Shown: positions 2,005 to 29,680 of the stretch, in pieces
How positions within the stretch are numbered: the stretch's first letter is position 1
Layout of the letters: the number at the start of each line of letters is the position of its first letter
Assembly (NCBI GenBank): GCA_937863565.1
Contig: CALMGJ010000012.1
Location: 124,001-188,000, forward strand
Direction: 5' to 3'
Length of the DNA: 64,000 nucleotides
Source: an uncultured bacterium
GTDB taxonomy: Bacteria > AUK180
Notes under the pieces: generated by a model
Told to the model about the DNA's origin: nothing
The model's database searches: none
The model's input: the letters and a program-made list of their open reading frames with translations, nothing else
Position numbers and translations under genes: made by a program

Positions 2005-2476
2005 ATGAATAACACAAATATTAATCCTGAAGGTGAAGCCAGAAACTTCATTGATAGTAATAGGGTTATTCTATAAGCAAGGAGTGAAGGCAAATGTCAT
2101 TTTCTTTGATAATCATCCCGCGAGTGAAAAACCCTGGACAAAAGAGGTCTGGATTTATGATTTCCGTACAAATATTCATTTCACTTTAAAGGAAAATACA
2201 ATGAAGTTTGAAGATCTGAATGATTTTATTCATTGCTACAATCCGGAAAACAGAAAAAAACGGGAAGAAACAGAACGATTTAAGAAATTCACCTATGAAG
2301 AAATAATCGCAAGAGATAAGACCAGTCTTGATATATTCTGGCTTAAAGATGAGAGTCTAACTGATCTTGAAAATCTGCCGGAACCCGATGTGATCCTTTC
2401 GGAAATAGTAGAAAATCTTCAAAATGCATTGGAGCAAATAAAAAATATAAATGGAGGTAAATTAAAAGATGAATAA
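2005..2476 (+). pseudogene. hsdM: Type I R-M remnant: HsdR-like N-terminal stub (2005-2076) joined to an HsdM C-terminal fragment (~2063-2476)
   Basis: GLFYKQGVKANVIFFDN...VWIYDFRTNIHFTLK...RDKTSLDIFWLKDESL...LPEPDVI is the C-terminal region of HsdM. SAM-binding and NPPF motifs are absent. A different frame from ATG 2005 gives MNNTNINPEGEARNFID, like HsdR N-termini. Confidence 0.8.
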
Positions 2477-4331
2477 TATAACAGAAAACACTATAACATT
2501 GAATTTTTTACCACTAAATACAAAAGAATTTTCATTCCAGTGCTTTAGAAAAAAGATTGAGAAAGAAGAAGATTTGCTAGTATTTCCACAATATGTTTTA
2601 AGAGATGCAGATAGGGAAAGTAAAGATTTATATCATATATCATTCAACGAAGTAGATAATTTCGAAAAATATCTGTGTAAATCTACGATAAACACTAATT
2701 TAACAAAATATTACCTATTAAAATTACTCGAAAATAATTCTGCAATACAAAAAAAATATATAGAGGAGAAAAAAGATATTATAGTAAAGAGTAAAGATAT
2801 AAAATATATTCTTGAAGAAAATCCACTAGGATACAGAATAATATCTATGACTCCATACTATTTAAAAGGTATATCCCAATATGGTTATTTAATCGATTAT
2901 CGTTTTATTAGGAAAAAGGGGATTCCATTTGATAGAAAAATATTGCGAATGTCTTTAAGTATGGATGAATATTATAGATCAAATAGTAATTATCATATTG
3001 ATAAATATAGCTATATTACTTCTTTTATTGAACAAAACAAAAATAATCTTTTTAAATTAAATAGAGATATTTATATAGAAAATATAATGTATCCGATTGA
3101 ATCATATAAGTTAAAAGTAAAGAAGTATATTGTAAATAATAACGAAGAAGGTAATTCGCAATATATGTCAATTATTACACATGGTCCATACAAAAATATT
3201 AATGGTAATCCTAGATATTATTTTATTTTTAAGGAAGAACATCGTCAATATGTGAATAATTTAATTGAAGCATTGAATGGGAATAAATATTCAACATTTC
3301 CAGGAATAAAAAAATTCAATATGCAAAATATTACAAAGGATAATGTGTTTCCGCTTGTCATTGATAATTTTGATTATACTCTAAATGAAGATAAAATCAA
3401 TAATTTAATTAATGAGAGACAAGAGAGGGCAATAGCAATATTTATCTTCCCTGAAAAAGAAGAAAAATATTACTATGAGATTAAATGGATTTTTATTAAT
3501 AAGAATATACCCACTCAAGGAATACACACAGAAACAATTTTTGATGAAAACCAATTGAAGTGGTCTATATCAAGTATTGCTCTTCAATTATTCTCGAAAT
3601 TGGGTGGCATCCCGTGGCGCCTAGTTCCGAGTAACGAAAGGTGTTTAATAATTGGAATGGGACAATCAATTAAACGAGATACTGATACGAAAAAGATAAA
3701 TAAGTATTATGCATATTCTATTTTAATTGATTCTTCTGGGGAATATAAAAAATTAGTGCCTTTGGCAGATGCAGAAACTCTATCAGACTATATTAAAGCT
3801 ATTACAACAAATGTCATAAAAATCATTTACGAAACCAATGAATATAGAAAAATTACTATTCATGTCCCACAAAAGATTCCTAAAGAAGCAATTGATAATT
3901 TAAAAAAGGTATTAGAAGGTAATAATCAGTCGCGCGAGTTGGTTATTATTCGAATAAATGATAAATCTAAGTTCTTTGGATATAATATACAAATAAATTC
4001 CCTTATTCCATTTGAAAGTAGTTATATAAAGTTGAGTAACTATGAATATTTGCTGTGGACAGAGGGTCTTAGCTATCATAATAGAAAAGCAGTTAAGCGT
4101 TATGCTAATCCTTTATATATAGATTTTATCTATTCAAAGAACCAGATTAATCACAACCTGTATTTGCAAGATATCCTTAATTTATCGGGTGCAAATTGGC
4201 GTGGTTTTAATGCGAAAAATTTACCGATATCTATATTCTATCCCCAATTGATATCTAGATTCAATAAGTATTTCAGCTTATATAAAATTGATATGTTAGA
4301 AAAGGAATCAGATATTCCGTGGTTTTTATAA
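2469..4331 (+). CDS. Prokaryotic Argonaute, long-B type, catalytically inactive PIWI
   Basis: 620 aa. MID Y-K-Q-K residues (YYEIK...IPTQ...FSKLGGIPW). PIWI IIGMGQS and ITIHVPQK lack the catalytic Asp residues. LSGANWRGFNAKNLPISI and a C-terminal PWFL. Confidence 0.9.
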   Translation: MNNITENTITLNFLPLNTKEFSFQCFRKKIEKEEDLLVFPQYVLRDADRESKDLYHISFNEVDNFEKYLCKSTINTNLTKYYLLKLLENNSAIQKKYIEEKKDIIVKSKDIKYILEENPLGYRIISMTPYYLKGISQYGYLIDYRFIRKKGIPFDRKILRMSLSMDEYYRSNSNYHIDKYSYITSFIEQNKNNLFKLNRDIYIENIMYPIESYKLKVKKYIVNNNEEGNSQYMSIITHGPYKNINGNPRYYFIFKEEHRQYVNNLIEALNGNKYSTFPGIKKFNMQNITKDNVFPLVIDNFDYTLNEDKINNLINERQERAIAIFIFPEKEEKYYYEIKWIFINKNIPTQGIHTETIFDENQLKWSISSIALQLFSKLGGIPWRLVPSNERCLIIGMGQSIKRDTDTKKINKYYAYSILIDSSGEYKKLVPLADAETLSDYIKAITTNVIKIIYETNEYRKITIHVPQKIPKEAIDNLKKVLEGNNQSRELVIIRINDKSKFFGYNIQINSLIPFESSYIKLSNYEYLLWTEGLSYHNRKAVKRYANPLYIDFIYSKNQINHNLYLQDILNLSGANWRGFNAKNLPISIFYPQLISRFNKYFSLYKIDMLEKESDIPWFL

Positions 4332-4342
4332 GAGAGAAACAA

Positions 4343-5392
4343 ATGAAATTTTCAAGAGATGATTTAATTATTTTAATTGGTGCAGGAGCAAGCAAGGATG
4401 CAGGTATATTAATATCAAGTGATATGGAAAGAGAGTTAGAAAAACTTGTAAATGAAAATATTGACTGGAAAAAATATAATGATCTATTCTATTTAATAAA
4501 AAGTGGTACAATTTATTCAAACAGTTTAATCCACAAAGAGATTTCATTCAATATTGAAACATTATTAATTGTGTTAGAAGAAATGGAAAAGAAAGTCCAA
4601 CATCCCCTATATCCATTTATTGGCTCTTGGAATATTAGATTTAGTGAGGTAATAAGAGATAATTTTGAGCTTATTAAGAATTTCAAGAAAGATATTATTA
4701 AAGAATTAAAAAAATGGGTAAATATGAAGGATAAATCAAAAGCTCGTTACTATCAGAATTTAAAAAGATTTCAACAGGAAACATCATATCCCCTAAGATT
4801 ATTTAGTTTAAATTATGACTTGTGTGTTGAATCATTGTCAAAAGATTCTAGCGAACCATTTTTAATTGAGCGCGGATTTGATGATAAAAAAGAGTGGGAT
4901 TATAAACGATTTTCTGAGCTTCCAGCAGAGGCACAACCCAATATTTATCTATATAAAATACACGGTTCATTAGATTGGGAGAGAGATTATAATACTGGTA
5001 TAGTATCATATATAGATACTATTGCAGAAATTCCAGATTTAATATTTGGTACTCAGTATAAGCTTCAATATGTAGATCCATATTTATTTCTCTTCTCAGA
5101 ATTGCGTCATTATGTATTTAAAGCAAAAATTATTATATGTATTGGATATAGTTTTTCAGATGAGCATGTTAATGCAATCTTATCACAAGCACTAAAATAC
5201 AGTAGAAAAGTAAAATTATTTTCTGTATCACTAAATATAAATAAAAAAAATATTGCAGGAATACTACAGGTACCAGATGAGGATCAAATAATTACAGAAC
5301 ATAATGTATATGCCAAAGACTTTTTTGAAAATCTATCACTTAAAAAAATAGAGAACATGTATAAGATGGACAAAAATGATGATGTTGTATAA
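4343..5392 (+). CDS. SIR2-like (SIR2_2) NADase effector associated with pAgo
   Basis: IILIGAGAS, FSLNYDLCVE, LYKIHGSLDW and CIGYSFSDEHVN motifs. ATG 4343, 11 nt after the pAgo stop, preferred over GTG 4319. Confidence 0.9.
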   Translation: MKFSRDDLIILIGAGASKDAGILISSDMERELEKLVNENIDWKKYNDLFYLIKSGTIYSNSLIHKEISFNIETLLIVLEEMEKKVQHPLYPFIGSWNIRFSEVIRDNFELIKNFKKDIIKELKKWVNMKDKSKARYYQNLKRFQQETSYPLRLFSLNYDLCVESLSKDSSEPFLIERGFDDKKEWDYKRFSELPAEAQPNIYLYKIHGSLDWERDYNTGIVSYIDTIAEIPDLIFGTQYKLQYVDPYLFLFSELRHYVFKAKIIICIGYSFSDEHVNAILSQALKYSRKVKLFSVSLNINKKNIAGILQVPDEDQIITEHNVYAKDFFENLSLKKIENMYKMDKNDDVV

Positions 5393-5520
5393 GAATGGAA
5401 ATTTATTAAGAATACAGGGAATCCAGAGAATTGGGGGATGGTTGGTGCTTTTGTTGCAAAATAAGATGGGCATTAACCCATATTAACTCGATCCGCCATT
5501 CCGGAGCGATGGTTCTTTAA

Positions 5521-5559
5521 GCCAATATGCTTGAAAAATCCCCGTAAAAGTGCTAAAAT
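5521..5559 (+). promoter_or_regulatory. Repeated promoter module, copy 1
   Basis: GCCAATATGC-TTGAAA-N17-TAAAAT with extended TG; 33/34 identical to 12069-12102. Confidence 0.75.
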
Positions 5560-5626
5560 AAAAAAATGATTAGGTATGCTGCTCATAGGATATCTTGTTT
5601 GATTATTAAAACATATATCTTGTGAT

Positions 5627-8608
5627 ATGTTTATTCCAAGTTACATATTAACACATCTCCTTATTGGTGTAATTCTACAGCCTACAGAAAAGTGGCTCGC
5701 TTGGATACCTCTATTAAATATTATCTTACTAATACGTAATTTGGGGAGGAGATGGCCATATGCAATTTTATTAGTCATTCCGTATATTAATATTATATAT
5801 TTATTATATTTAATCAATTACTTTACTCCACATAACAAAAATGCACATAATCAAAAGCCCTCTGCTCAGAGAAATGGCAATGAATATCAAGAAAAACACA
5901 ATAATAAGGTAATTCTTGATAATGTGTTCCTCAACGAAAAAGAGGCACAAATAATAACGAAAAAAAATGAAAATGATATTAATGAAATTCCAGAGAAAAT
6001 AGGACCTATAGGACATAATAGTAATGAAAACAGTAAGGGGCAAATCAATAATAATATACATACGAAAATTACCGAAAAACTTAAAAATAACCAAGAGGAA
6101 ACCGCCACAAATGAATATCAAGGAAAATTTAATGATAAGGCTATTCTTGATGACATGCTTCCTAACGAGAAAGACGAAGCACAAATAACGATTAAAAAAA
6201 AATATACAATAAGGGAAAGTATTAATTATAATGGGTTCTTTGATAATATTTATATTCATGACAATTTATGGGAATACATAAAAACAAAGGAGAAGTTAAA
6301 AAAGAGATTATCTTACTTAATAAATAGAATAGAATTTAATTACTTGAATGAAAATCATGTACAGAAAAAAAACGCTAAACGATTAAAAAACTCTTATAAA
6401 ATATACTGGAACGATAAATTTAGGTTATTATATGACATCAATAATCAAGACAATATAATTACGGTGAGGCTTTATGAAATTGTAAACCATACTCATGGTG
6501 AAATACTTCATAAACATAATTACAACAAACAATTGGATGATATGTTAGATATATCTGAATTTAAAGATGATTCAATTTATATCGAGGAAACTATAGATGA
6601 TCATGAAGAAAAAATATATTACCCACTATTTAGAGAATGGACTCCCTTGGATGAAGAATATCTCGTCGACACAAGGGCAGATCTTCCTTGGATGCTTGTT
6701 CCCGAACAAAAGAATATTGTGGGTATTAAGGGCCCCGTTCTATTAAAGGGGAGTGCCGGGAGTGGGAAAACCACGATATCAATTTATAGATTGCTTCAAT
6801 ATCACCAGTACAATAAGATGGGTAGAAATATATATTTAACATATACTCCACATTTAAAGAAATATGCAAAGGAAATATATGATTCTCTTTTGCGGAATAA
6901 TCATGAAGAAGTAAGTGAATTTTATACATTAGAGGAAAAATTCAGAGATATTTTAGGAGAGAACTCTAAGAAATTTAAAGAAGAAGATAAGTTGACATTC
7001 TTGTATTTTAGAGAAATACCTTTTCTAAAAGCAGTGAGTAAGAAATATAACTTAGAAATGCTATGGGAGGAATTTAGAGGTGTTATTAAGGGAGCATTCC
7101 AACAATCAGAACTTGAAAAGGGTGCTTTAAGTTTTGATGAGTATTTAGAAATTCCATCGAAGCAATCATTAATTAAAAGTGATAAAGAACATATATACGA
7201 ATTATTTACAAAATACGAGAACCACAAGATAAATAAGGGATATTGGGATGATTTGGATCTAGTAATTGAAGTGAATCGTAAAATAAAAGAAAATAATGAG
7301 CAAATTCAGCAGTATTCTCAAGTCATCGTAGACGAGGTTCAAGATTTGACCAGCCTGCACTTATTTATTATATTACAAATGGCAAGTAATCCCGATGGAA
7401 TATTTTTATGTGGAGATTCCCAACAAATAATACATCCCAATAGATTCGAATGGGAACGGACTAAACAATTGATATATAAGTATTTAACTAAATATAAAAC
7501 TAATAACACAAGCTACTACAACAAGATTAAGGTAGAGCTGCAGGAATTAAAAATTAACTATAGATCTTCTAAACAAATTGTAGACATCACGAACAGATTA
7601 AGTGAATGGAGAAATAAGGAGTTTAGAGAAAGTAATAATAAATTAGAAGCAATATTTAGTGAAGAAGATATAGTTGTTATAAATGAAGAATATTTTAAGA
7701 ATGTCTATAGTGATACAAATGTATTAAGTCATCAAATAATGATTCTTGTTATGTCCGAAACAGCAAAATTGCAAGCATCTACGTTGTTTTTTAATAATAA
7801 AAAAAATATTTTCACTATAGAAGAAGCAAAGGGTCTAGAAAGTAAACATGCAATAGTGTTTAAATTTTTCCAAGATATTGATATTAATTTCCTTGAAGGA
7901 ATAAATGCAAAGGATGAGCATAGGAAAAAATTTATTGTAAGTATATTGAATGTTGCGATAACAAGAGCAAGAAAAAATTTAATATTTATCGAAGAGAAAT
8001 GGCCATCATGGTATGAACCCCTTTCGAATATTGACTATATTCACAATGATAATGCGAATGACATCTTACTAAGAATATTTGGTGAAAAAAGTTCAAAGGA
8101 GGATTTTAATAAATATGCTGTTGAATTAGAAAAAAGAGAATTATTTACTAAAGCGGCTGAATACTACTTTGCTAGTTTTGACAATACTAATGGAAATCGG
8201 TGTATGGCAGTATATTGTGAAAAAAAATATGAATATGAGAAAGCAGGAGATTTTTATGAGAAAGCGGGTTTATATATTAAGTCTCTCAATTGTTACGAGA
8301 AGGTAAAAGAATATAAAAAGGCATTTAATGTTATTATCAATAATGATGATAATAATAAAAACAATGAAATTGCTAAGAAAGTAGAGATGTATTTAAATGA
8401 TATTAAGATAATATCAAAATTGGGAGGATATGGAGAAATTATTTCTCAAGCAATATTAAGAAATAATAATAATATTGACATTGCACACCTATTTGATTAT
8501 TCATTAAATAGATACAGATTGTATTCGGATCTATTATCACAGAGAATACAATATCCTAAAAAATCCTTTGAGATAATATTAGATCGAATAATATCGTTAG
8601 AGAATTAA
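5627..8608 (+). CDS. Membrane-anchored RelE-like / UvrD-type SF1 helicase / TPR-like fusion protein
   Basis: Hydrophobic N-terminus (WLAWIPLLNI...LLVIPYINII), Asn/Lys-rich linker, RelE-like segment (KRLKNSYKIYWNDKFRLLYD...LYEIVNH), SF1 motifs GSAGSGKT, VDEVQD, GDSQQ, NYRS, TIEEAKGLE and LNVAITRAR, then helical repeats (AAEYY, AGDFYEKAG). Confidence 0.8.
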   Translation: MFIPSYILTHLLIGVILQPTEKWLAWIPLLNIILLIRNLGRRWPYAILLVIPYINIIYLLYLINYFTPHNKNAHNQKPSAQRNGNEYQEKHNNKVILDNVFLNEKEAQIITKKNENDINEIPEKIGPIGHNSNENSKGQINNNIHTKITEKLKNNQEETATNEYQGKFNDKAILDDMLPNEKDEAQITIKKKYTIRESINYNGFFDNIYIHDNLWEYIKTKEKLKKRLSYLINRIEFNYLNENHVQKKNAKRLKNSYKIYWNDKFRLLYDINNQDNIITVRLYEIVNHTHGEILHKHNYNKQLDDMLDISEFKDDSIYIEETIDDHEEKIYYPLFREWTPLDEEYLVDTRADLPWMLVPEQKNIVGIKGPVLLKGSAGSGKTTISIYRLLQYHQYNKMGRNIYLTYTPHLKKYAKEIYDSLLRNNHEEVSEFYTLEEKFRDILGENSKKFKEEDKLTFLYFREIPFLKAVSKKYNLEMLWEEFRGVIKGAFQQSELEKGALSFDEYLEIPSKQSLIKSDKEHIYELFTKYENHKINKGYWDDLDLVIEVNRKIKENNEQIQQYSQVIVDEVQDLTSLHLFIILQMASNPDGIFLCGDSQQIIHPNRFEWERTKQLIYKYLTKYKTNNTSYYNKIKVELQELKINYRSSKQIVDITNRLSEWRNKEFRESNNKLEAIFSEEDIVVINEEYFKNVYSDTNVLSHQIMILVMSETAKLQASTLFFNNKKNIFTIEEAKGLESKHAIVFKFFQDIDINFLEGINAKDEHRKKFIVSILNVAITRARKNLIFIEEKWPSWYEPLSNIDYIHNDNANDILLRIFGEKSSKEDFNKYAVELEKRELFTKAAEYYFASFDNTNGNRCMAVYCEKKYEYEKAGDFYEKAGLYIKSLNCYEKVKEYKKAFNVIINNDDNNKNNEIAKKVEMYLNDIKIISKLGGYGEIISQAILRNNNNIDIAHLFDYSLNRYRLYSDLLSQRIQYPKKSFEIILDRIISLEN

Positions 8609-8618
8609 GGAGTTATAT

Positions 8619-9359
8619 ATGGATTATGAAAATGCTAAAAATGACATTGTAAGTTTAGGGGGAAAAATTGATAAACATGATTCGCTTTTATTGAAATTAC
8701 TAACGACATTTAGCAAATTTGAAGAAAATATCAAAGGAATACTAGATGCACAAAATATTATAGCAAATAAAATGAATGAAGTTAGTCGAACATATTCTGA
8801 GTTCAATAATCGTTTAAAAAATATAATGACAGAACATGATAATATTATGAAAAGCACAAAAGATGCCAGAGCCAATAGTATACGAGAAATCAATGAGGAA
8901 ACGCAACAACAAATGAAAAAAATAATGGACAATGCTTTACTAAATTCGAAAAATTCAATGTCAGATTTCAACAAAATACTTCAAGATGAAATTAATAAAG
9001 TGGAGGAAAAAATGAATATTTTAAGGAATCGAATTATCGAAATAAATAATGAAAACAAGAAACTAGAAAGTAAATTGAATGATAATGAAAATAATATATA
9101 TAAATTGAATGCTGGTATAAATAATATGAAAAGCAATTTGGATGTATATTCAAAAGAAATAGAAGATATTACAAATAATACTGTAATGTTGGTGCAGAAT
9201 AAAGGAAAAGCTATTATTAATGAAATTAATGATATTATTGAGCAACATAAAAAAGCACTTGATAATTATGCCGGTGAAATGGATAAGAGGCATACTTCAT
9301 TTTTAGATAAGATCAAAAGTTATATTAATGGTATCCGAAATAATATAAAAGAGAAGTGA
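8619..9359 (+). CDS. Coiled-coil hypothetical protein
   Basis: 246 aa, heptad-like, no Pro; AGGAG RBS overlapping the helicase stop, 10-nt gap. Confidence 0.75.
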   Translation: MDYENAKNDIVSLGGKIDKHDSLLLKLLTTFSKFEENIKGILDAQNIIANKMNEVSRTYSEFNNRLKNIMTEHDNIMKSTKDARANSIREINEETQQQMKKIMDNALLNSKNSMSDFNKILQDEINKVEEKMNILRNRIIEINNENKKLESKLNDNENNIYKLNAGINNMKSNLDVYSKEIEDITNNTVMLVQNKGKAIINEINDIIEQHKKALDNYAGEMDKRHTSFLDKIKSYINGIRNNIKEK

Positions 9360-9496: not shown

Positions 9497-9530
9497 TCCA
9501 GGTCATTTTACCGGCAACAAATGGTATATT

Positions 9531-9553
9531 AAGCCAATATGCTTGAAAAATCC
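9531..9553 (+). repeat. Repeated promoter module, copy 2 (truncated)
   Basis: AAGCCAATATGCTTGAAAAATCC identical to 5519-5541, then diverges. Confidence 0.75.
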
Positions 9554-9684
9554 TAAGAAGACTTTTTAATATTTGCATATGTGAAAGATATGGCTTTATA
9601 ATATATTTCTTAAGATGGTTTAGTTAAAACAAATAAGTGTTATTCAAAAAACATTAAATGTGAAAGAAATGGTATAATACAAAC

Positions 9685-10449
9685 ATGAGCATATTGATAA
9701 TTCCATGCTACATTAAAAATGCCTATGATGAAAAATGTATTCATAGATTACTTGAAAGTGTAACAAGACAAACAACCCCTTTTGAAAAAGTACTTGTAGT
9801 AGATGATGCCAGTAAATATGCTTATCCTATTTATCAGAAAGAAGTAGAAAAAATAACTATAGCCTCTAATTCTGGACCGGCAAGAGCAAGAAATATCGGG
9901 ATTGAGAAGGCAATCTCATTAAATATAAAGAATATTCTTTTTACAGATCATGACTGTGTTTTAGATGAGAATTGGAATAAAGAGATGTCCAATTGTTTAG
10001 ATAATAACAATTTCGGCGCTGTAGGTGGGATGACATATTCATTCGGAAAAACTATTTATGATAAGTATCACGATTTCAATGGAACTTTAAATGGAAAGTG
10101 GCTTCTACCAAAGAAGCAAGAGTTATGGTATATGCCATCTTTGAATTTTGGTATGAAATCTTATGTTGCAACAGAATTCATTTATGATGAAAAATTTCCT
10201 ACTGCCGCCGGAGAGGATGTTGATTTATGCTTGAGACTGCGAAGCAAATACAAGATAGGTTTTTGTCCCAAGGCTAAATTGTGGCATGATTATGGTTATA
10301 AGGGGCATTATAAGGATTTTAATAAATTCGTAAAACTTTTTATGAAATATAAAAGCTCCAGTGCCACTCTATATGAAGGACATACTGTATTATTGTGGGA
10401 TTCTTCAGAATCGATATATCCTGGAAATATGTATGAGTCTAATATATAA
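9685..10449 (+). CDS. Glycosyltransferase family 2 (GT-A)
   Basis: IIPCY, VVDDAS, GPARARNIG, FTDHDC (DxD), GEDVDLCLRL. Confidence 0.85.
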   Translation: MSILIIPCYIKNAYDEKCIHRLLESVTRQTTPFEKVLVVDDASKYAYPIYQKEVEKITIASNSGPARARNIGIEKAISLNIKNILFTDHDCVLDENWNKEMSNCLDNNNFGAVGGMTYSFGKTIYDKYHDFNGTLNGKWLLPKKQELWYMPSLNFGMKSYVATEFIYDEKFPTAAGEDVDLCLRLRSKYKIGFCPKAKLWHDYGYKGHYKDFNKFVKLFMKYKSSSATLYEGHTVLLWDSSESIYPGNMYESNI

Positions 10450-11449
10450 TATAAAATTTACTAAATCTTCATTTATTAATATATTCAATGACTATTATAG
10501 CGAAGTAAAACACTTCGCAAGAAGAATAAGGAACCCTCTTCTTAAAATATTGATGATCATACTTAAATCAATTGAATGGGGAATTTATCATTGGTATAAA
10601 TCATCGATTAGGCGATTTTATGGAGTAAGAGGAAATGAATTGATTTTCAATATTACTAAGAGATGTAACGAGAAATGTGCAAAATGTGGAATATGGAAAA
10701 ATCCTGAAAAAGATGATGAAAGACTAAGTATTGATGTATTTATCCAATGTTTAAATGCCCTCAAGAAAAACCTATATCAAGTAACTATTACTGGCGGAGA
10801 ACCGCTACTATTTAAGGATGAGATACTGAAAATTGCTAAAGAGGCAAGAGAAAACAACATCCCGGTTGTAACTGTTACAAATGGAGTATTATCAGATGAA
10901 ATATTCGTTCAAAAATATGGGGAAATGAAACATATATTAGTATTTTCGATTGATACGCTGAATAAAGAAAAATGGAAGATATTGCGAGGTACAGCATCAT
11001 ATAACATTGTGATGAATAACCTAAATATTGCGAAAAAAATTCTTGGTAAAAGATTGCAGATTCAGACAGTTTTAGCTAAAGAAAATAAAGACGATATTAA
11101 CGAAATTGTTACTTATTGCAAAAAGAATAATTTAAAACACACAATACAACCATATATGGATTTTGGAGGACATTTACATCCAGTAGAGAAATCAAGCAAT
11201 AATACATCAAATATGCCATGTGCAGCAAGAAAAAATATTGTCATTTTGCAAAATGGGGATGTAATAAAGTGCTTTGATCATTATCGTATTCCATATGCAA
11301 AACTCCCATTAGGTAATATTAAACATGAAGACATTATTACGATATTATGTAAAAGGCGCTCTATTGAAGTATCCAGAATAATGAAATACTGTAATCTGCC
11401 ATGTAAGAATCTTTCGTGTAACATTCCTGCGACAGAGTTCTATGATTAA
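10433..11449 (+). CDS. Radical SAM protein with SPASM/twitch-like C-terminus
   Basis: CNEKCAKC (CxxxCxxC), TGGEPLL, VTNG, FSIDT, and C-terminal C...GDVIKC...LGNI...CNLPCKNLSC. ATG 10433 preferred over GTG 10361. Confidence 0.85.
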   Translation: MSLIYNIKFTKSSFINIFNDYYSEVKHFARRIRNPLLKILMIILKSIEWGIYHWYKSSIRRFYGVRGNELIFNITKRCNEKCAKCGIWKNPEKDDERLSIDVFIQCLNALKKNLYQVTITGGEPLLFKDEILKIAKEARENNIPVVTVTNGVLSDEIFVQKYGEMKHILVFSIDTLNKEKWKILRGTASYNIVMNNLNIAKKILGKRLQIQTVLAKENKDDINEIVTYCKKNNLKHTIQPYMDFGGHLHPVEKSSNNTSNMPCAARKNIVILQNGDVIKCFDHYRIPYAKLPLGNIKHEDIITILCKRRSIEVSRIMKYCNLPCKNLSCNIPATEFYD

Positions 11450-11993
11450 TTATTCCCATAACGATATTATTTTGATAAGAGGCGCACCAACAGCCGGGAA
11501 AACACAGTTATCTAAAAATCTGATTAAATATTACGATAAAGGAGTACGAATTGAAATTGATACATTACGCGCAATGGTCATAAAGCCCAAATGGACTAAT
11601 CAAATAGAACATAAGAGAATATTAAATCTATCAATAAAATTAGTAGAAGGGTTTCTAATAATGCAATTTAGCCCCATAATAATTGTAGATACATTTAGTG
11701 GAAATAAACAGAATGGTTATATAAAATTGCTCAAAGAGAATATACCGGCTGTTCAAATATATAGAATCGGATTATTTGCGGATAAAGAAACAATAATTAA
11801 AAGAGTTGCTGAAAGAAATGTTGATGAGTTCAAAGATGTTGAATGTTGTATAAAATTAAATAATGAAATAATAAATTCTAAAGATGATAATGAATTAAAA
11901 TTAAATACCAGCAAATATTCAATATGCAAATCCTCCAAGATTATTTATGATTATATTGAAGAATCTAAGAAGAAAATATATAGAAGAAAGTAA
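11442..11993 (+). CDS. P-loop kinase-like protein (AAA_33/nucleotide-kinase fold)
   Basis: IILIRGAPTAGKT, IEIDTLR, IIVDT, lid-like IIKRVAER; 8-nt overlap with the rSAM gene. Confidence 0.75.
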   Translation: MINYSHNDIILIRGAPTAGKTQLSKNLIKYYDKGVRIEIDTLRAMVIKPKWTNQIEHKRILNLSIKLVEGFLIMQFSPIIIVDTFSGNKQNGYIKLLKENIPAVQIYRIGLFADKETIIKRVAERNVDEFKDVECCIKLNNEIINSKDDNELKLNTSKYSICKSSKIIYDYIEESKKKIYRRK

Positions 11994-12068
11994 ACACGGA
12001 TCTGAAAAACTGTAGCAGTATCTATTTCTTAAAATAGAATAGGCTTTACTGAATTAAGGGGTTATTAC

Positions 12069-12102
12069 GCCAATATACTTGAAAAATCCCCGTAAAAGTG
12101 CT
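12069..12102 (+). repeat. Repeated promoter module, copy 3
   Basis: GCCAATATACTTGAAAAATCCCCGTAAAAGTGCT, 33/34 identical to 5521-5554. Confidence 0.8.
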
Positions 12103-12218
12103 TAAATATTATCAAATGAAAAGGGTTGCTATTCAAAGTAGAATATTTTCTGAAAATCGAGGGTGGTACTTCAGAATTATAAAGAAATTATTGAAAAGGA
12201 AAAAATAAGGAGGCGAAT

Positions 12219-14039
12219 GTGGCGACACAATCAAGTAGCGCACAAAACCGAGTATTAGGAGATTGGTATAACATGATTAAACTTGGGCAAATTAAACTAC
12301 CTAGATTTCAAAGAATGGAAGCATGGGATAGAAATAGAATAAAAAATTTTATCGATACGATATTTAAAAACCTACCAGTTGGAGTAGCCCTTGTATATGA
12401 AAAGGGAGATAAAGACAATTTTATTAGTAGGTTTATTTCAACTGCAGAACCGGATACAACTGAAAGACATACGGAATATTTACTGGATGGTCAGCAACGA
12501 TTAACTGCTTTATGGAGGGTTCTTCACAATAATTATGAAAGTGAAAAATATTTTTTGTACCTGCCGGAATATGATAATTACGATGATGGAATAGAATATG
12601 AAGAAATGACAGTATATTGTCAGGCTCGGTGGTCAAAAAAAGAGAAACAATATCCTTTATGGGCTGATGATCCTGGAATTTGTTATAAAAAGGGACTAAT
12701 ACCAACCGAATTATTTAATCCGGAATTTGGCGAAGTTAAAACAAATGAATGGATCGACCTAGCGACGAGCAATCTTAAACCAATGAATAAAGCAGATCCG
12801 GATATTATTGATAAAATAGAAAAATACAACAGTGTTAAAACAGATCTTCAAAAAATTATTATGCAAACTAGAGAAAGCTTAAAGCATTTTAATTTGCCGT
12901 ATTTATCATTACCCGTATCAACACATAAAGAGATAGCCTTGCAGGTGTTTATCAATATGAATACAAACAGCAAACCACTTTCATTATATGATATCATTGT
13001 TGCCGAGGTTGAAGGAGAAAAAGGTGAATCTCTACATGAACTACAGGACACTTTGGATAGACGAAACGAAAATATAAAAAGATACTTTGATTTATCAAAT
13101 TTAATACTATCAACTTCTGCCTTATTACAAAATAAACTGCCCAATAATCGCGGAATGCTTGAAATGAATAAGGCCATAATGGTAGAAAAATGGGAGACGC
13201 TATGTATATGTTTAGAAAGAATGGCGGAATTTCTTGAACGGAACAGGATATATGATAAACAGAGACTTCCTACAAATGCTGTTTTGGGAGTAATTGCAGC
13301 GAGTTATTCCGAAATACCTGATACAGGAGATTTAAGAGGGAAGTGGGAACTTCTTTTAAAAAAATATTTGTGGTCTTCATTTTTTACAGATCGTTACGAG
13401 AATTCAGCAGCTTCGAAAGCATTTGTTGATTATCAAAATATTATAAATATTATTAAAGGAAATACTAAAGAAGATGGTTCTTTATATGAAGAGCAAGACG
13501 TTCCTGTATTAAATAGAAAAGAACATCCCCTTGCAGATGTAGAAGAACTATTGACTATTGGATGGCCAAAACAGGAAACAATTCGAGGCAGAGGTATCTT
13601 GGCAGTAGCGAATTACATGGGTGCACAAGATTTTGCCGATGGGCAACCCTTAAACCAGTATAATATTGATAAAAGAGAATACCATCATTTATATCCGGAT
13701 GCACTATTAAAAGAGGCAAAAATCGATAGCTATAAAGCCCTTAACTGCGCATTGATAACCTGGAAAACAAATAGAATAATTGGGCGAACTGATCCATTAA
13801 CATATATCAAAGAACGTTCTGAATGGACAGATGAAGCTATAGTGGAAAAAAGATTAAGAAGCCATATAATACCGGTGAAAGAGCTCAAAACAGGTGGTTA
13901 TGAAAATTATACTGGAGAAGATAAAATCAATAAGATAAAAGTCGATTACGAGAACTTTTTAAATCAAAGGGCTCAACGAATAGTTAAAGCGGCATACGCG
14001 TTAGCGAATGGAGAGGAAATTGACAATATATTTGAATAA
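12219..14039 (+). CDS. DUF262 / GmrSD-like type IV restriction protein with C-terminal HNH-like motif
   Basis: LPRFQRMEAW, LLDGQQRLTAL, FINMNTNSKPLS (DUF262); EYHHLYP...LNCALITWKTNRII; AGGAGG RBS before GTG. Confidence 0.85.
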   Translation: MATQSSSAQNRVLGDWYNMIKLGQIKLPRFQRMEAWDRNRIKNFIDTIFKNLPVGVALVYEKGDKDNFISRFISTAEPDTTERHTEYLLDGQQRLTALWRVLHNNYESEKYFLYLPEYDNYDDGIEYEEMTVYCQARWSKKEKQYPLWADDPGICYKKGLIPTELFNPEFGEVKTNEWIDLATSNLKPMNKADPDIIDKIEKYNSVKTDLQKIIMQTRESLKHFNLPYLSLPVSTHKEIALQVFINMNTNSKPLSLYDIIVAEVEGEKGESLHELQDTLDRRNENIKRYFDLSNLILSTSALLQNKLPNNRGMLEMNKAIMVEKWETLCICLERMAEFLERNRIYDKQRLPTNAVLGVIAASYSEIPDTGDLRGKWELLLKKYLWSSFFTDRYENSAASKAFVDYQNIINIIKGNTKEDGSLYEEQDVPVLNRKEHPLADVEELLTIGWPKQETIRGRGILAVANYMGAQDFADGQPLNQYNIDKREYHHLYPDALLKEAKIDSYKALNCALITWKTNRIIGRTDPLTYIKERSEWTDEAIVEKRLRSHIIPVKELKTGGYENYTGEDKINKIKVDYENFLNQRAQRIVKAAYALANGEEIDNIFE

Positions 14040-14119: not shown

Positions 14120-15100
14120 ATGACATTACTAGAATTGGCCTATAAAGTTTTAAAGAAAACAAAGCGTCCGATGAACAATAGAGAGATATGGGAATATGGA
14201 AAACGGCATGGTTTTTTCAAAGAATCTGATTTTCAAGGACAAACACCTTGGAGTTCTCTCGGTGCTCAAATATATGTGAACATGAAAAATAATAAAGATT
14301 GTGTTTTTGCGATAACAGAAACACGCCCAAGAAGATTTTTATTAAAATCATGGGGAAATTATAAGAAAAGACCCGGTGATTCTCATAAAAATGATATTAA
14401 AAGAAATAAACACATCTCTCAACAGCAATTGGTAATGGAGTATGCGGAGAATCTTTCATCCGAACTATTTTATACCAACAAAGAGGTTATTCTGAATTTT
14501 ATAAAAGGAAAGCAGGGCATATACGCTCTATATCATGGGAATAGATTATTTTATGTCGGGTTGGCTTCCTATATGCACATCAGATTAAAACAGCATCTAA
14601 ATGATCGTCTTGCCGATAAGTGGGATAGATTCAGCATATATCTCACAAAAAATACCGAATACCTGAAAGAGATGGAATCTCTGGTTCTGAGGATAGCGCA
14701 TCCGGTAGGGAACAAGGCCGGCGGCAAATTCGTTGCGGCAAAACACTTAATGAGTGAGATCAAACAGTACTATTTCGAGCAAAAGACGAAAGAGGCACAC
14801 AAATTATTCGGGGATGCTTATTCTGAAAAAAAGAAAACGGATAAGAAAGTCAAACAAGAAGGAACATCAAAACTGACTATGACAAAAATCCCGATTAAAA
14901 TGACATATAAAGGTAATGTGCATCAAGGATATTATTTCCCGAGCGGACAAGTAAAGACACATAATACGATGTATAATTCACCAACCGCCGCTGCGCTATC
15001 TAATATGCCGGGCAGACCAGCTGTAAACGGCTGGATAAAATGGAAATATAAAGACCAATCCGGGAAATGGATCCTCCTTGATAATTTAAGAAAAAAATAA
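14120..15100 (+). CDS. HARE-HTH / GIY-YIG / RAMA-like nuclease
   Basis: N-terminal LAYKVLKK...GQTPWSSLGAQIY (HARE-HTH), central GIYALY...FYVGLA...RLKQH...KEMESL (GIY-YIG), C-terminal YNSPTAAA...VNGWIKWK (RAMA-like). Confidence 0.75.
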   Translation: MTLLELAYKVLKKTKRPMNNREIWEYGKRHGFFKESDFQGQTPWSSLGAQIYVNMKNNKDCVFAITETRPRRFLLKSWGNYKKRPGDSHKNDIKRNKHISQQQLVMEYAENLSSELFYTNKEVILNFIKGKQGIYALYHGNRLFYVGLASYMHIRLKQHLNDRLADKWDRFSIYLTKNTEYLKEMESLVLRIAHPVGNKAGGKFVAAKHLMSEIKQYYFEQKTKEAHKLFGDAYSEKKKTDKKVKQEGTSKLTMTKIPIKMTYKGNVHQGYYFPSGQVKTHNTMYNSPTAAALSNMPGRPAVNGWIKWKYKDQSGKWILLDNLRKK

Positions 15101-15182: not shown

Positions 15183-15509
15183 ATGATTGTAACAACAACG
15201 GAGACGGTAGAGGGCAAGAAGGTCGGCAGATATCTCGGACTGGTCCACGGAGAGACGATATACGGGATGAACATAATAAAGGATTTCTTCGCGTCCATTA
15301 CCGATGTTATCGGAGGAAGGGCCGGCGTATATGAAGACGGCTTGAGAAAGGCCAGGGATAACGCCCTTTCGGAGATGGAGGGCAATGCCGTGAAACTGGG
15401 CGCGGATGGGATCATCGGGTTGAAATACGACGCGGAAGTGATATCCTTTGCACAGGGCGGACATATGCTCATCTATACCGTCACCGGCACGGCGGTGAAA
15501 TTAAGTTAA
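15183..15509 (+). CDS. YbjQ / UPF0145 family protein
   Basis: MIVTTTETVEG...GLVHGETIYGMNIIKDFFASITDVIGGR...LGADGIIG...TGTAVKL. Confidence 0.9.
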   Translation: MIVTTTETVEGKKVGRYLGLVHGETIYGMNIIKDFFASITDVIGGRAGVYEDGLRKARDNALSEMEGNAVKLGADGIIGLKYDAEVISFAQGGHMLIYTVTGTAVKLS

Positions 15510-15552: not shown

Positions 15553-15844
15553 ATATGAGCAGATAAACAAGAATAAAAAGAGGATAATATCGGTATCGGA
15601 TCTTAGGGAATACGAATACTGCAGTATATCCTGGTGTACCACGAAAGGTCTTGGCGGTCACACTAAGAAAAATATTAGCGTAAAAGATAAGAAAGATCAT
15701 ATGAGAGATCTCAGTGTTTCCGATAAAATGAAGACAAGAGGGGATATTGGGCATTGGCTCTATGAGGTAAAAAGAATGTTGGCGATATTGTTTTTCCTGG
15801 CTATTATGGGCGGAATACTGTGGATATTATTGAAGGTCATCTGA
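15536..15844 (+). CDS. Cas4-like nuclease N-terminal half with C-terminal TM helix
   Basis: ISVSDLREYEYCSISW resembles the Cas4 motif carrying the first Fe-S Cys; RGDIGH; hydrophobic tail. TTG start is uncertain. Confidence 0.55.
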   Translation: MKLLSKYEQINKNKKRIISVSDLREYEYCSISWCTTKGLGGHTKKNISVKDKKDHMRDLSVSDKMKTRGDIGHWLYEVKRMLAILFFLAIMGGILWILLKVI

Positions 15845-16338
15845 AAGAGCTCATTATTTTGGGAATATGGCTGATCTCAATGATCATACTGTATATTGCC
15901 ATCTTCGGACAAAGGATATACGGACAATTCACAAAAGGATCATTGAAGTATGAGCGCGAGAACTGCATTATCTTCGGTAAACCGGACAGAATAGTGAAAA
16001 AAGGCGGGCAAACCGTGATATATGAATATAAAACAAGAAAAGCGCCACCCAAACCCTATGGTGATCATATAATGCAAATTGGAACTTATTTTCTGCTTTT
16101 CGAGAATACTTACCGGAAAAGGGCTGATTTCGGGATAATAAAATATAAAGACAGGGAGTTTAGGATAGAAAATTCCAGTGGACTTAGAGAACAGGTGCTG
16201 AATAAAATAGATCTATTCATTAAAGAGACGGAAGACCCCGAGAATATCTTAAGGAATCACAATAATTACGGCAAATGCCATAATTGCCAATACAAAGCCC
16301 TTTGTGCTTCATTTTTAGGTAAGAGGGACATTGATTGA
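15820..16338 (+). CDS. Solo Cas4-like PD-(D/E)XK nuclease with N-terminal TM helix
   Basis: GKPD...IYEYKT, HIMQIGTY (QxxxY) and C-terminal KCHNCQYKALC. Confidence 0.8.
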   Translation: MDIIEGHLKELIILGIWLISMIILYIAIFGQRIYGQFTKGSLKYERENCIIFGKPDRIVKKGGQTVIYEYKTRKAPPKPYGDHIMQIGTYFLLFENTYRKRADFGIIKYKDREFRIENSSGLREQVLNKIDLFIKETEDPENILRNHNNYGKCHNCQYKALCASFLGKRDID

Positions 16339-16446: not shown

Positions 16447-17073
16447 ATGAGGTTTCTGGAGTTCAAAAAGAGACTTATTGACCTGCCCGTATTCGGCCTT
16501 TCCGATATAAGGAAGTCGGCACCCGATCTCGATCCCCGCCGTCTTTATGAATGGGGGAAGAAGAGATATATCATCAAGGTGCATAATGGGCATTATGTCT
16601 TTGCCGAGAAGATCGCGGAACCGGAGATGTTCTTTCTCATAGCGAACAAGATATACAGGCCGTCATATGTATCGCTTGAATCCGCCCTCAGCATATATGG
16701 TCTGATACCGGAACATCCGTATACCGTGACATCGGTGACGACGAGAAAGACCTCCGCTTTTGAAACGCGCGCGGGGAATTATTCATACAGAAAGATAAAG
16801 AAGGAATTGTTTTTCGGATATCAGGTAAAGAAGAACGGTCAGGGTGAATGGCTCCTTGCCTCGCCGGAAAAAGCATTGCTGGACTATATTTATCTGAATG
16901 CGAACATTGAAGATGCAGACGATATCGAGGGACTCAGGATCAATATGGATGAATTGCGTTCCCGCGTGAGCGCCGCGATACTCGGGAATTATACTTCGCT
17001 CATCGGCAATGAAAGAGTGTCAAGATGCGTGAAGATACTGATGAAGGAGGCCGGAAATGTTCGATTATCGTGA
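16447..17073 (+). CDS. abiEi: Type IV TA antitoxin, AbiEi-like
   Basis: wHTH-like N-terminus, PSYVSLESALSIYGLIPE, ASPEKALLD; overlaps the downstream AbiEii. Confidence 0.85.
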   Translation: MRFLEFKKRLIDLPVFGLSDIRKSAPDLDPRRLYEWGKKRYIIKVHNGHYVFAEKIAEPEMFFLIANKIYRPSYVSLESALSIYGLIPEHPYTVTSVTTRKTSAFETRAGNYSYRKIKKELFFGYQVKKNGQGEWLLASPEKALLDYIYLNANIEDADDIEGLRINMDELRSRVSAAILGNYTSLIGNERVSRCVKILMKEAGNVRLS

Positions 17074-17836
17074 GATAGCGAAATTCTACCCGGAGAAGGA
17101 GCGCATATTTAAAAGGCAGCTGCTACGGGAATATCTGCAGTATAAGATACTTGATATCATTTATGGCACTGAAGCGGGGCAGAAGGCGGTCTTCATCGGC
17201 GGCACTGCGATAAGGATAGCATACGGATCTCGCAGGTTCTCGGAGGATATTGATCTTGACGGCCGAAACCTTTCACTCGAAAAATTTAAGGAATTATCGG
17301 AAGTTGTGAAAAGAGAACTCGAATATGACGGTTATGCCGTAGAAATGAAAGTCGTTGCCAAAAACGCTTTCAGATGCTATCTCAAATTCCCGAGACTCCT
17401 TTACGATATGGAGATGTCCGGTTATGAGGAGGAGAAGATACTCATACAACTCGATTCCGAAGAACAGCCCTATGAATATGAACCGGAGGAATTCCTTCTG
17501 AATAAATTCGCCATCCTCTCAAAGATATTCGTGGCGCCTCCCGCTATCCTTCTTTCGCAGAAAATAGCGGCATTCCTCAAAAGAAAGCGGACGAAGGCGC
17601 GGGATATGTATGATATTGTGTATCTATATTCACTGACTACTCCCGATCAGGGGTATCTTGAAAGTGTTCTCGGTATCAAAGATAAGGACGCTTTAAGATC
17701 CGCGCTTTTAGAGAAATGCTCGGGGCTCGACCTTGATGCGATGAAAAAAGAAATAGAGGTGTTCCTTATTGAACCAAAGGATGCGAAGATGATAGGAATG
17801 TTCCCCGAATTCATGAAAAAGAAGTTGACGATCTAA
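17057..17836 (+). CDS. abiEii: Type IV TA toxin, AbiEii nucleotidyltransferase
   Basis: FIGGTAIRIAYGSRRFSEDIDLD, QKIAAF, KARDMYD. Confidence 0.9.
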   Translation: MFDYREIAKFYPEKERIFKRQLLREYLQYKILDIIYGTEAGQKAVFIGGTAIRIAYGSRRFSEDIDLDGRNLSLEKFKELSEVVKRELEYDGYAVEMKVVAKNAFRCYLKFPRLLYDMEMSGYEEEKILIQLDSEEQPYEYEPEEFLLNKFAILSKIFVAPPAILLSQKIAAFLKRKRTKARDMYDIVYLYSLTTPDQGYLESVLGIKDKDALRSALLEKCSGLDLDAMKKEIEVFLIEPKDAKMIGMFPEFMKKKLTI

Positions 17837-20675: not shown

Positions 20676-20725
20676 AAATGAACAATGAATAATTGGGAAT
20701 TGAGAATTGACAATTGAGAATTGAG
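20676..20725 (+). repeat. Heptamer repeat tract
   Basis: AATGAAC AATGAAT AATTGGG AATTGAG AATTGAC AATTGAG AATTGAG. Confidence 0.85.
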
Positions 20726-20738
20726 GAAAAGAAAGGTC

Positions 20739-22559: not shown

Positions 22560-22610
22560 ATAATGAACAATTGACAATGGACAATGGACGATTGATAATT
22601 AGACGAAGGG
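22555..22610 (+). repeat. Heptamer repeat tract
   Basis: AATGAAC AATTGAC AATGGAC AATGGAC GATTGAT. Confidence 0.8.
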
Positions 22611-22626
22611 AAGTTAAAAATAAGAA

Positions 22627-29324: not shown

Positions 29325-29680
29325 GCAGCAATGAAAATGAAAAATGAATAGTGAAAAGTGAGAAGAGAGGATAGAGGTTGGAAGCTGGAGGTTAGAGTAT
29401 AGGGCGCGGCGCAGTGAAGAGAGTTGAAAGTTGAAAGTTGAGAGTCGGTCGAAACGAAGTGAAGAGAGAATACGGTAGATGGCATATTAGATCATTACAC
29501 AGTTAAAGGGTTAACGGGTTCAAATAAGGAATAATAATTTTAATAACTCGTTAACTCGCAGGCAAGCTTCTTGCCAACTCGTTAACCGTGTAATAGATAA
29601 TACTTTCATGTGCAACTCTTTAACTGAATGATAAAGCGAAGCGCATTGAACATTGAATAGTTAAAAGTGAATAGTGAGAA
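29325..29680 (+). repeat. Mosaic 7-mer/8-mer repeat tract
   Basis: AATGAAA/AGTGAAA/AGTTGAA units; 29502-29537 is 34/36 identical to 19547-19582; inverted AACTCGTTAACTCG units. Confidence 0.8.

Follow-up and report, generated by a model that had tools for sequence, protein, structure and literature searches.

We describe here three overlapping genes found in a 64,000-nucleotide stretch of DNA (the window) from an uncultured bacterium (GTDB lineage Bacteria; AUK180), corresponding to positions 124,001 to 188,000 of contig CALMGJ010000012.1 in assembly GCA_937863565.1. They encode a family 2 glycosyltransferase (GT2), a radical S-adenosylmethionine enzyme (rSAM) and a small P-loop kinase, and together form a discrete, conserved and co-evolving unit, which we call the triad.

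The triad and its three proteins

The triad and the element that precedes it are laid out as follows.
9529..9572, + strand, promoter-like module (TTGAAA, 18 nt, TAATAT; repeat family D2)
9685..10449, + strand, GT2 gene, open reading frame (ORF) of 254 aa
10433..11449, + strand, rSAM gene, 338 aa, in an ORF that is open from 10361
11442..11993, + strand, kinase gene, ORF of 183 aa

The start of the rSAM gene was set at the ATG at 10433 because 23 of the 24 aligned homologues share that N-terminus, the remaining one being N-terminally shorter. The GT2 and rSAM genes overlap by 17 nt, the rSAM and kinase genes by 8 nt, and all three are AT-rich, as a preliminary description of this DNA had already reported; the GC content over 9-12 kb is 27-32%, compared to ~46% outside the island in which they lie. 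This low-GC stretch covers ~2-15 kb (27-36% GC), the rest of the window being mostly at 40-50%. None of the three proteins contains a 19-residue window resembling a membrane span in a Kyte-Doolittle analysis (highest means of 0.62 for GT2, 1.09 for the rSAM and 1.66 for the kinase, this last in the strand that ends in a conserved DTFSG motif), and all of them are basic (pI of 8.1, 9.4 and 9.5, respectively).

The module upstream of the triad belongs to a 44-nt family with copies at 5517-5560, 9529-9572 and 12065-12108, which precede a helicase/coiled-coil operon, the triad and a GmrSD gene, respectively; the triad therefore sits between two module copies, in agreement with the preliminary description. 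The module consists of a GCCAATAT-N-CTTGAAAAATCC core followed by a -10-like box. In the whole 2.27-Mb assembly the 21-nt core was found at three places, all inside the island, and the reversed control at none. The three upstream regions were aligned, and a consensus scan placed a promoter-like match at 9543-9572. Judging from its hexamers, the module probably acts as a promoter, and this private sharing could reflect co-regulation of the three operons or a cassette-wise assembly of the island.

The first protein is a GT2 (GT-A) enzyme in the broad sense of that family, and a soluble one, as had been proposed. It matches Pfam PF00535 (Glycos_transf_2) with an E value of 1.8e-15 and 57.7 bits (cut-off 23.3), shows the invariant motifs D40-D41, D88-H89-D90 (DxD) and E177-D178-x-D180, and its AlphaFold2 (AF2) model retrieved generic GT-A enzymes in Foldseek (E 1e-10 to 1e-9). 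It is 58-71% identical to 19 aligned homologues, with two near-invariant stretches (121-151 and 204-254), of which about 121-151 and 204-248 have low model confidence when the protein is folded alone. Solved GT2 sequences match its N-terminal half only. The best named NCBIfam relative is MftF (67 bits, cut-off 280), no PADLOC-DB 2.0 model matched, and an ESM Atlas search returned generic GT2 clusters only.

The second protein belongs, also in a broad sense, to the SPASM/twitch subgroup of rSAM enzymes, with Pfam matches to Radical_SAM (E 9e-20) and to SPASM (21.7 bits, cut-off 21.5). The CxxxCxxC motif corresponds to C78/C82/C85, and the tail follows the pattern C263-x11-G-x4-C280, C306, C320-x3-C324-x4-C329, in which the six Cys are invariant or nearly so; the earlier assignment of an rSAM with a Cys-rich SPASM/twitch-like tail is thus upheld. 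The N-terminal two-helix extension (about residues 14-54) is conserved and family-specific, and many basic residues are invariant in the alignment. All NCBIfam models score below their cut-offs, among them HxsC (66 bits, the best), MoaA (61.2 bits) and viperin (56.5 bits). The best structural neighbours of the AF2 model are tied (BlsE, Z 19.7; MoaA, 19.2; SkfB, 19.1; SuiB, 19.1; viperin, 18.7), with Z values of 13.7-19.7 across BlsE, MoaA, SkfB, SuiB, anSME and BtrN, and three of the five tied neighbours (BlsE, MoaA and viperin) act on nucleosides or nucleotides. Profile searches of PDB sequences with the rSAM, the kinase and GT2 gave core-domain matches only.

Homologues of the rSAM make up at least 330 clusters (at 90% identity) in a set of 5.8 billion proteins, the best 120 being 52-61% identical and 316-349 aa long. 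Their existing names are generic or evidently automatic (for instance 'radical SAM protein', 'MoaA' or '7-carboxy-7-deazaguanine synthase'). The family has a sharp edge in a whole-library profile search, with only 23 representatives reaching E 1e-30. The search showed one full-length 50% cluster, P0159 as a divergent member, and a sister family of shorter proteins (P0163, P0165 and P0169) that do not have the N-terminal extension. No rSAM fusion proteins of at least 593 aa were found.

The third protein is a small kinase-fold NTPase, again as proposed from the sequence. Pfam AAA_33 (E 1.8e-6, 28.8 bits, cut-off 27) is the only curated model whose cut-off it passes, the Zeta_toxin match being weak and the PADLOC match marginal. 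Besides the Walker A motif (G14-x-P16-x-x-G19-K20), it has conserved D40-x-x-R43, D83 and R121/R125 residues. Profile matches in the PDB include 2bdt, an uncharacterised protein from Bacillus halodurans (6.9e-9), Pnkp1 (1.3e-3) and PSTK (3.6e-3), and the PHROG family 'polynucleotide kinase' also matches (E 2.4e-7). The D-x-x-R motif aligns with D-D-F-R of Pnkp1, and Walker A and the lid arginines are in register, though the Pnkp1 score is marginal; these three elements have catalytic roles in Pnk. In one locus (L038, 11008-12174) the kinase ORF runs ~245 residues past the kinase domain, in an extension without a Pfam match.

Conservation, spread and predicted GT2-rSAM pairing

The loci used for comparison come from a metagenome scan in which the best 80 of 167 rSAM relatives were taken as 80 loci, several of them near-duplicates, so that counts are not all independent. 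A GT2 homologue (58-85% identity) lies directly upstream of the rSAM gene in 78 of the 78 loci whose contig reaches that far, the contigs of L052 and L070 beginning inside the rSAM gene, and a kinase homologue (32-50% identity) lies downstream in 77 of 77, the contigs of L032, L058 and L076 stopping at the rSAM gene. Gene order and strand are invariant across the 80 loci. Moreover, the pairwise identities of the three proteins correlate in 57 sets (Spearman 0.60, 0.51 and 0.76), and for the two protein pairs that were tested a Mantel test of 199 permutations gave p = 0.005. Clustering of ORFs of at least 60 aa revealed no fourth conserved gene, no cluster apart from the triad with its shadow frames occurring in over 4 of the 80 loci, and no conserved ORF of 15-70 aa that could encode a precursor peptide was found upstream or downstream of the operon. 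The set of genes singled out in the window is, then, conserved among its homologues.

Two observations concern the DNA around the triad. In 11 loci (L024-L029, L037, L051 and L077-L079) conserved DNA lies within 500 nt after the kinase gene, with matching short frames on both strands; this DNA could correspond to a repeat element or to an RNA without annotation, and Rfam gave no match to it in the seven of these 11 loci that were scanned. Close to the triad itself, Rfam gave no match either in the window or in the 10 loci to which it was applied.

The three genes decay unequally. GT2 has been broken independently five times, by a 5' deletion (L004), an internal deletion (L037), a frameshift (L065), a TAA at codon 146 (L048, 5112-5861, and L049, 4097-4846) and a TAG at codon 145 (L076, 60-809), compared with a single break in the kinase (L044) and none in the rSAM. 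This repeated loss of GT2 fits a costly first step. The two nonsense codons, at adjacent positions of GT2 genes that are intact in all other respects, could indicate recent inactivation or a hotspot.

The cassette seems to be horizontally mobile in both bacteria and archaea, because the GC content of the triad varies from 29 to 68% across loci and is often lower than that of its flanks, the rSAM is missing from all 8 further genomes searched in the phylum of the window, and the hosts are scattered (named rSAM records include Methanoperedens, Anaeromyxobacter (oryzae) and Bacteroidales). A search of genome contigs with one protein gave as sole match an unrelated rSAM (33% identity), and none of the 401 genomes searched in the phylum of that match, a set without a positive control, gave a hit. 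In an IMG/VR contig (L083, whose DNA is that of L061) a large serine recombinase adjoins the triad, and the 11.7 kb available show no clear phage genes.

The prediction of a GT2-rSAM complex gave an ipSAE of 0.74, the best of three controls reaching 0.01. In the calibration, which is rough since own alignments were used, 116 of 157 solved complexes attained that mark, compared with 2 of 215 mismatched pairs. At least 65% of the contacts recur between runs, with a partner pLDDT (predicted local distance difference test) of at least 75. The predicted interface involves GT2 residues 124-132, 183-188 and 215-247 and the rSAM helices 28-56, 266-279 and 302-318, the last two beside the auxiliary-cluster cysteines, and it coincides with the family-specific invariant parts of GT2 and with the N-terminal helices of the rSAM. 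This model supports a binding of GT2 to the rSAM. Furthermore, two proteins of Thermoplasmatota (P0307, 543 aa, and P0188, 520 aa) consist of a GT2 that is 41-42% identical, fused to an rSAM-like domain that includes the N-terminal helices but has neither the CxxxCxxC motif nor the C-terminal cysteines. As these archaeal fusions keep the rSAM-like domain without its clusters, the GT2-rSAM association appears to be old and at least partly structural, and the domain looks like a pseudo-enzyme partner kept for binding.

The predicted contact could also be read otherwise, with the rSAM as a protein or peptide maturase, like those of HXS, anSME or the enzymes of ribosomally synthesized and post-translationally modified peptides (RiPPs), acting on the C-terminal tail of GT2 or on an unlinked protein that would also be the object of glycosylation and phosphorylation. 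The SPASM/twitch architecture is in line with this, SuiB, anSME and SkfB are among the top folds, and GT2 residues 230-247 would contact rSAM 266-279 and 302-318 in the predicted complex, in a tail that is near-invariant and yet of low confidence when modelled alone. HxsC is moreover the best NCBIfam match, and in the HXS (HxsA-D) antiphage system HxsB/HxsC are reported to mature a defence effector (PMC13128918; Nat Commun 2026). However, the HxsC score is far under its cut-off of 267.9, the loci have neither a conserved precursor ORF nor a conserved fourth gene, the archaeal fusions indicate that the contact can be structural, and the insertion of a carbamoyltransferase gene (see below) was judged atypical for peptide pathways. 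We regard a maturase role as improbable, the contact between the GT2 tail and the SPASM region being what still speaks for it.

A candidate pathway, its rivals and its relatives

Some loci contain a fourth gene between the rSAM and the kinase. In L035 it encodes a 579-aa NodU/CmcH-type carbamoyltransferase (Pfam 1.4e-47 and 9e-27), whose best NCBIfam match by name, NodU, scores well under its cut-off, and in L072 a 210-aa Methyltransf_24 protein. The rSAM of Methanoperedens P0134 reads through into the same methyltransferase as that of L072, P0308 is a fusion of a GT2 homologue with Methyltransf_24, and P0215 one of Methyltransf_24 with a distant rSAM. Carbamoyltransferases and methyltransferases of such types usually decorate hydroxyls of small molecules. 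Their occurrence inside the operon lends support to small-molecule chemistry, and we consider it more likely than not that the triad is a small-molecule pathway.

The neighbours of the triad were defined as up to two proteins of at least 120 aa per side, which gave 177 proteins from 63 loci after leaving out the near-duplicates L021, L025, L049, L057, L065 and L066 and the 11 loci that had no such neighbour. They were scanned with Pfam and, in two batches at E 1e-12 and 1e-20, with PADLOC. Judged by domain names, a defence-type neighbour is present in 22 of the 63 loci, or in 13 on a strict reading. Examples are the following.
L008, Pycsar cyclase and effector
L019, LmuB
L020 and L078, type II restriction-modification
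L028, DarT
L035, SspB and GmrSD
L037 and L051, SNF2-PLD
L042, STAND/AAA_21
L063, MksE
L067, NERD-UvrD and GmrSD
L068, type III restriction-modification enzyme
L069, McrBC

The remaining ones include HEPN, McrB-like AAA_5, Schlafen and WYL proteins, among others. Genes for transposases, integrases or resolvases adjoin the triad in 11/63 loci. Sugar-nucleotide or capsule genes do so in only three or four (L004, L005, L053 and perhaps L017), and there are none among the ORFs scanned in the window (762 to 30893), so that the triad is not embedded in a cell-surface polysaccharide locus; the homologues are rare in such loci. The co-localisation with defence genes that the preliminary description proposed to score is seen in these counts, though as they have no background control an enrichment near defence genes is plausible only. 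Its suggested pairing of the triad with the adjacent DUF262 (GmrSD) nuclease is not supported as a general feature, as GmrSD adjoins the triad in 3 of 64 cases only (the window, L035 and L067).

That frequency also bears on a modification of nucleic acids, in which a hydroxyl of DNA or RNA or a hydroxymethyl base would be the common target for phosphorylation by the kinase, glycosylation by GT2 and rearrangement by the rSAM, in the manner of phage thymidine hypermodification or of RNA repair or protection. Phage hypermodification pathways employ P-loop kinases, transferases and rSAM enzymes, the nearest named relatives of the kinase are polynucleotide kinases and PSTK, the three proteins are basic, and restriction enzymes for modified DNA (GmrSD and McrBC) adjoin the triad in several loci. 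Against this stand the rarity of GmrSD, the lack of a recognised DNA- or RNA-binding domain and of a conserved nuclease or reader, the absence of the triad from the phage collection searched, and the NodU-type and Methyltransf_24 insertions, which point to small-molecule hydroxyls. We hold such a modification to be distinctly unlikely. Of the two outcomes foreseen in the preliminary description, a modified sugar or nucleotide inhibitor thus gains from the in-operon tailoring genes, whereas nothing positive was found for DNA modification.

Our preferred interpretation, to which we assign a probability of roughly 0.4, is that the triad encodes a cytoplasmic three-enzyme pathway leading to a phosphorylated, radical-remodelled glycoside, possibly nucleoside-like, that would be used in conflict with phages. 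GT2 and the rSAM would operate as a physical complex, in which GT2 would transfer the sugar of a nucleotide-sugar donor onto a small acceptor that may be a nucleobase or a nucleoside, and the rSAM would remodel the glycoside by hydrogen abstraction, for instance through dehydration, oxidation or decarboxylation. The polynucleotide-kinase-like enzyme would then phosphorylate a hydroxyl of the product, either to activate a nucleotide-like antimetabolite or to protect the producer, with tailoring by an O-carbamoyltransferase or by a methyltransferase in certain lineages. As a constitutive chemical defence, and following the logic of prokaryotic viperins, the product would most likely come into play in conflicts with phages or with mobile elements of other kinds. 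We infer from several lines that the complex forms, that the substrate is a small molecule and that the steps follow this order, and likewise what the product is and that it serves in defence. A cytoplasmic pathway is proposed because there are no membrane spans and no transporter; a nucleoside-like product because of the nucleotide-handling fold neighbours of the rSAM, the polynucleotide-kinase-like kinase and the precedent of blasticidin (see below); and a role in phage conflict because of the sporadic mobile spread and the defence company, by analogy with viperins. If the triad is a small-molecule pathway, such a role in defence or conflict seems, by this analogy, somewhat favoured.

Several observations weigh against this interpretation. 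All the proposed chemistry is by analogy, the score of the predicted complex is the model's own confidence rather than a measurement, and radical chemistry appears dispensable at least in the archaeal fusion branch. Tailoring genes are inserted in only 2 of 80 loci, the fold searches with the GT2 and rSAM models made no single characterised enzyme stand out, and among the fold neighbours of the rSAM the RiPP maturases, SkfB and SuiB, score level with the nucleotide enzymes. Regarding immunity, a sensor, a regulator and an exporter are all missing from the cassette, the defence context was read from domain names without a background control and with PADLOC thresholds that differed between batches, defence-type neighbours are lacking in 41 of the 63 loci and some flanks consist of housekeeping genes (ThrRS, PdxJ or PurL-like), the triad was not found in 72,556 plasmid and 50,697 phage records, and GT2 is 58-75% identical between hosts that range from 29 to 68% GC, a degree of conservation that is unusual for a defence gene.

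In another reading, the same small-molecule pathway would have no role in immunity and its product would be an accessory natural product for microbial competition, a cofactor or a protective metabolite, the kinase maybe conferring self-resistance and the cassette riding variable regions. The natural-product-type tailoring genes inside the operon, the relation of GT2 to MftF, a cofactor glycosyltransferase, the loci without defence-type neighbours (several with flanks of housekeeping or metal-resistance genes), the high sequence conservation and the lack of copies in the phage and plasmid collections would all agree with it. On the other hand, no exporter, regulator or resistance gene is conserved, the spread is sporadic (0/8 relatives and 0/401 genomes of the other phylum), the triad is frequently beside Pycsar, Lamassu, restriction-modification, Ssp, DarT and McrBC genes, and in the window it shares its private promoter-like module with two defence operons. 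We consider this explanation unlikely.

If the preferred interpretation of a glycoside used in phage conflict is right, the triad would belong to a known kind of system, in which immunity or conflict relies on a small molecule made by enzymes, or might form a distinct class. Prokaryotic viperins (pVips) are the closest in logic, being rSAM enzymes of defence islands with constitutive synthesis of antiviral nucleotide analogues, no sensor and sometimes a kinase. Viperins convert NTP to 3'-deoxy-3',4'-didehydro-NTP. The PADLOC pVip model matches the rSAM core (72-235, 63.1 bits, E 6.6e-18), and viperin is among the tied folds. The rSAM differs from viperins in its SPASM/twitch tail, its two-helix N-terminal extension and its obligate linkage to GT2 with predicted binding, and the kinase is polynucleotide-kinase-like and not a nucleoside monophosphate kinase. 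The NCBIfam viperin model (NF038283) covers only residues 72-233 (56.5 bits, E 2.4e-15, cut-off 180), and a viperin-type C-terminal extension, which has no auxiliary Fe-S cysteines, is rejected by the six conserved Cys and the SPASM match of the tail; the rSAM is not a viperin, in line with the preliminary description, in which it lacks a viperin-like motif context.

The HXS system is similar in that defence is built on SPASM-type rSAMs, with HxsC as the best NCBIfam model for the triad rSAM, but the score of 66 bits is to be compared with a cut-off of 267.9, and the triad loci have a glycosyltransferase and a kinase and, among conserved neighbours, no second rSAM, HxS-repeat effector or HxsD partner. 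The low score and the lack of an HxsA/HxsD-like conserved fourth gene or small ORF in the 80 loci exclude the triad from HXS. In mycofactocin synthesis a SPASM rSAM (MftC) and a soluble GT2 (MftF) work on a small molecule, and MftF is the best named relative of both the triad GT2 and the fused archaeal homologues. Nevertheless, the triad has a kinase and a mobile, sporadic spread, and it has no genes for a precursor peptide, chaperone, peptidase or dehydrogenase; membership is rejected by the scores (MftF 67 versus 280 bits, MftC 41.6 versus 265 bits) and by the lack of a conserved precursor ORF. MoaA GTP 3',8-cyclase (61.2 bits versus 284; PDB profile E 1.3e-10 over residues 69-253 only) and the arsenosugar pathway of ArsS rSAM and an MftF-like glycosyltransferase (TIGR04167, 39.4 versus 300 bits; TIGR04283, 28.6 versus 182 bits) were rejected likewise.

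A chemical precedent is that of the early steps to blasticidin S and mildiomycin, with the cytosylglucuronic acid (CGA) synthase BlsD and the rSAM BlsE. For blasticidin S, free cytosine is coupled with UDP-glucuronic acid by the synthase before BlsE takes over, so that a sugar-nucleotide-dependent transferase makes a pyranosyl nucleoside from a free base and a twitch-type rSAM remodels its sugar (PMC3715490). BlsE is the top structural neighbour of the triad rSAM, tied with four others, but the sequence relation is weak (profile E 1.4e-5) and the comparison covers BlsE, not BlsD; in addition, BlsD and BlsE sit in large actinomycete clusters and the triad is a three-gene mobile cassette. Finally, the kinase resembles the polynucleotide 5'-kinases (T4 Pnk and bacterial Pnkp) and other AAA_33 kinases in the motifs that are in register with Pnkp1, and differs from them in its marginal scores and in having no phosphatase or ligase domain.

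No curated model describes the triad in NCBIfam 20.0 or in PADLOC-DB 2.0 of 2023 (newer DefenseFinder models being outside this scope), and the three proteins are below every NCBIfam 20.0 cut-off, which accords with the preliminary description in placing the triad outside the named systems. A full-text search found no published description of it, most subscription journals and supplements lying outside that search. It is tempting, although we find it rather doubtful, to see here a third mechanistic class of rSAM immunity after viperins and HXS, in which a GT2-rSAM metabolon and a kinase would make a tailored, phosphorylated, nucleoside-like antiviral from common nucleotide-sugar precursors, would be shared by Bacteria and Archaea, and would diversify by carbamoyl or methyl tailoring against phage counter-measures.

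If the interpretation were true, the triad would be a new instance of immunity through small-molecule synthesis in both bacteria and archaea, and a small, easily transferred set of genes from which a new antiviral or antimetabolite scaffold could be obtained. That an rSAM should be obligately paired with a glycosyltransferase, as predicted here, and stay so in archaeal fusions after the loss of the iron-sulfur sites, is unusual enzymology. The three-gene size makes the question directly testable, and the four-gene variants predict diagnostic mass shifts of about +43 Da (carbamoyl, L035 type) and about +14 Da (methyl, L072 type).

The island around the triad

The other genes that we could assign in and next to the AT-rich island of the window are the following.
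2033-2476, N6_Mtase fragment
2469-4331, Piwi-domain protein
4319-5392, SIR2 protein (PADLOC Aga_SIR2, E 1e-108)
5627-9359, helicase/coiled-coil operon, encoding a 993-aa protein with a UvrD-like helicase core (GajB-like in PADLOC) and then a 246-aa coiled-coil protein
12219-14039, GmrSD_N (DUF262) protein
14120-15100, HARE-HTH and RAMA protein, resembling PADLOC PDC-S14
15183-15509, YbjQ-like protein
15820-16338, Cas4/PD-(D/E)XK-like nuclease
16447-17073, ORF without assignment, directly before the AbiEii gene
17057-17836, AbiEii toxin gene

The defence genes that had been noted around the triad are thus recognisable as Piwi and SIR2 proteins, a UvrD-like helicase, GmrSD_N, a HARE-HTH/RAMA protein, a Cas4-like nuclease and AbiEii. 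Likewise, the reported lack of flippase, polymerase and sugar-nucleotide genes nearby holds among the ORFs scanned between 762 and 30893. The region 2033-5392, at the left edge of the island, looks like a short Argonaute-SIR2 defence system, and the ORF at 16447-17073 possibly forms an AbiE pair with the AbiEii gene. The N-terminal segments of the 993-aa helicase protein are hydrophobic, and its gene contains an internal direct repeat of 109 nt (5879-5987 and 6110-6218, 71% identical). Three tRNA genes (355-594, - strand) lie ~1.4 kb to the left of the island. Outside it, we also found an Imm5-like immunity protein (1174-1656), three TPR-rich proteins (20721-23697 and 29667-30893) and a 990-aa NosD/beta-helix protein (23857-26829).

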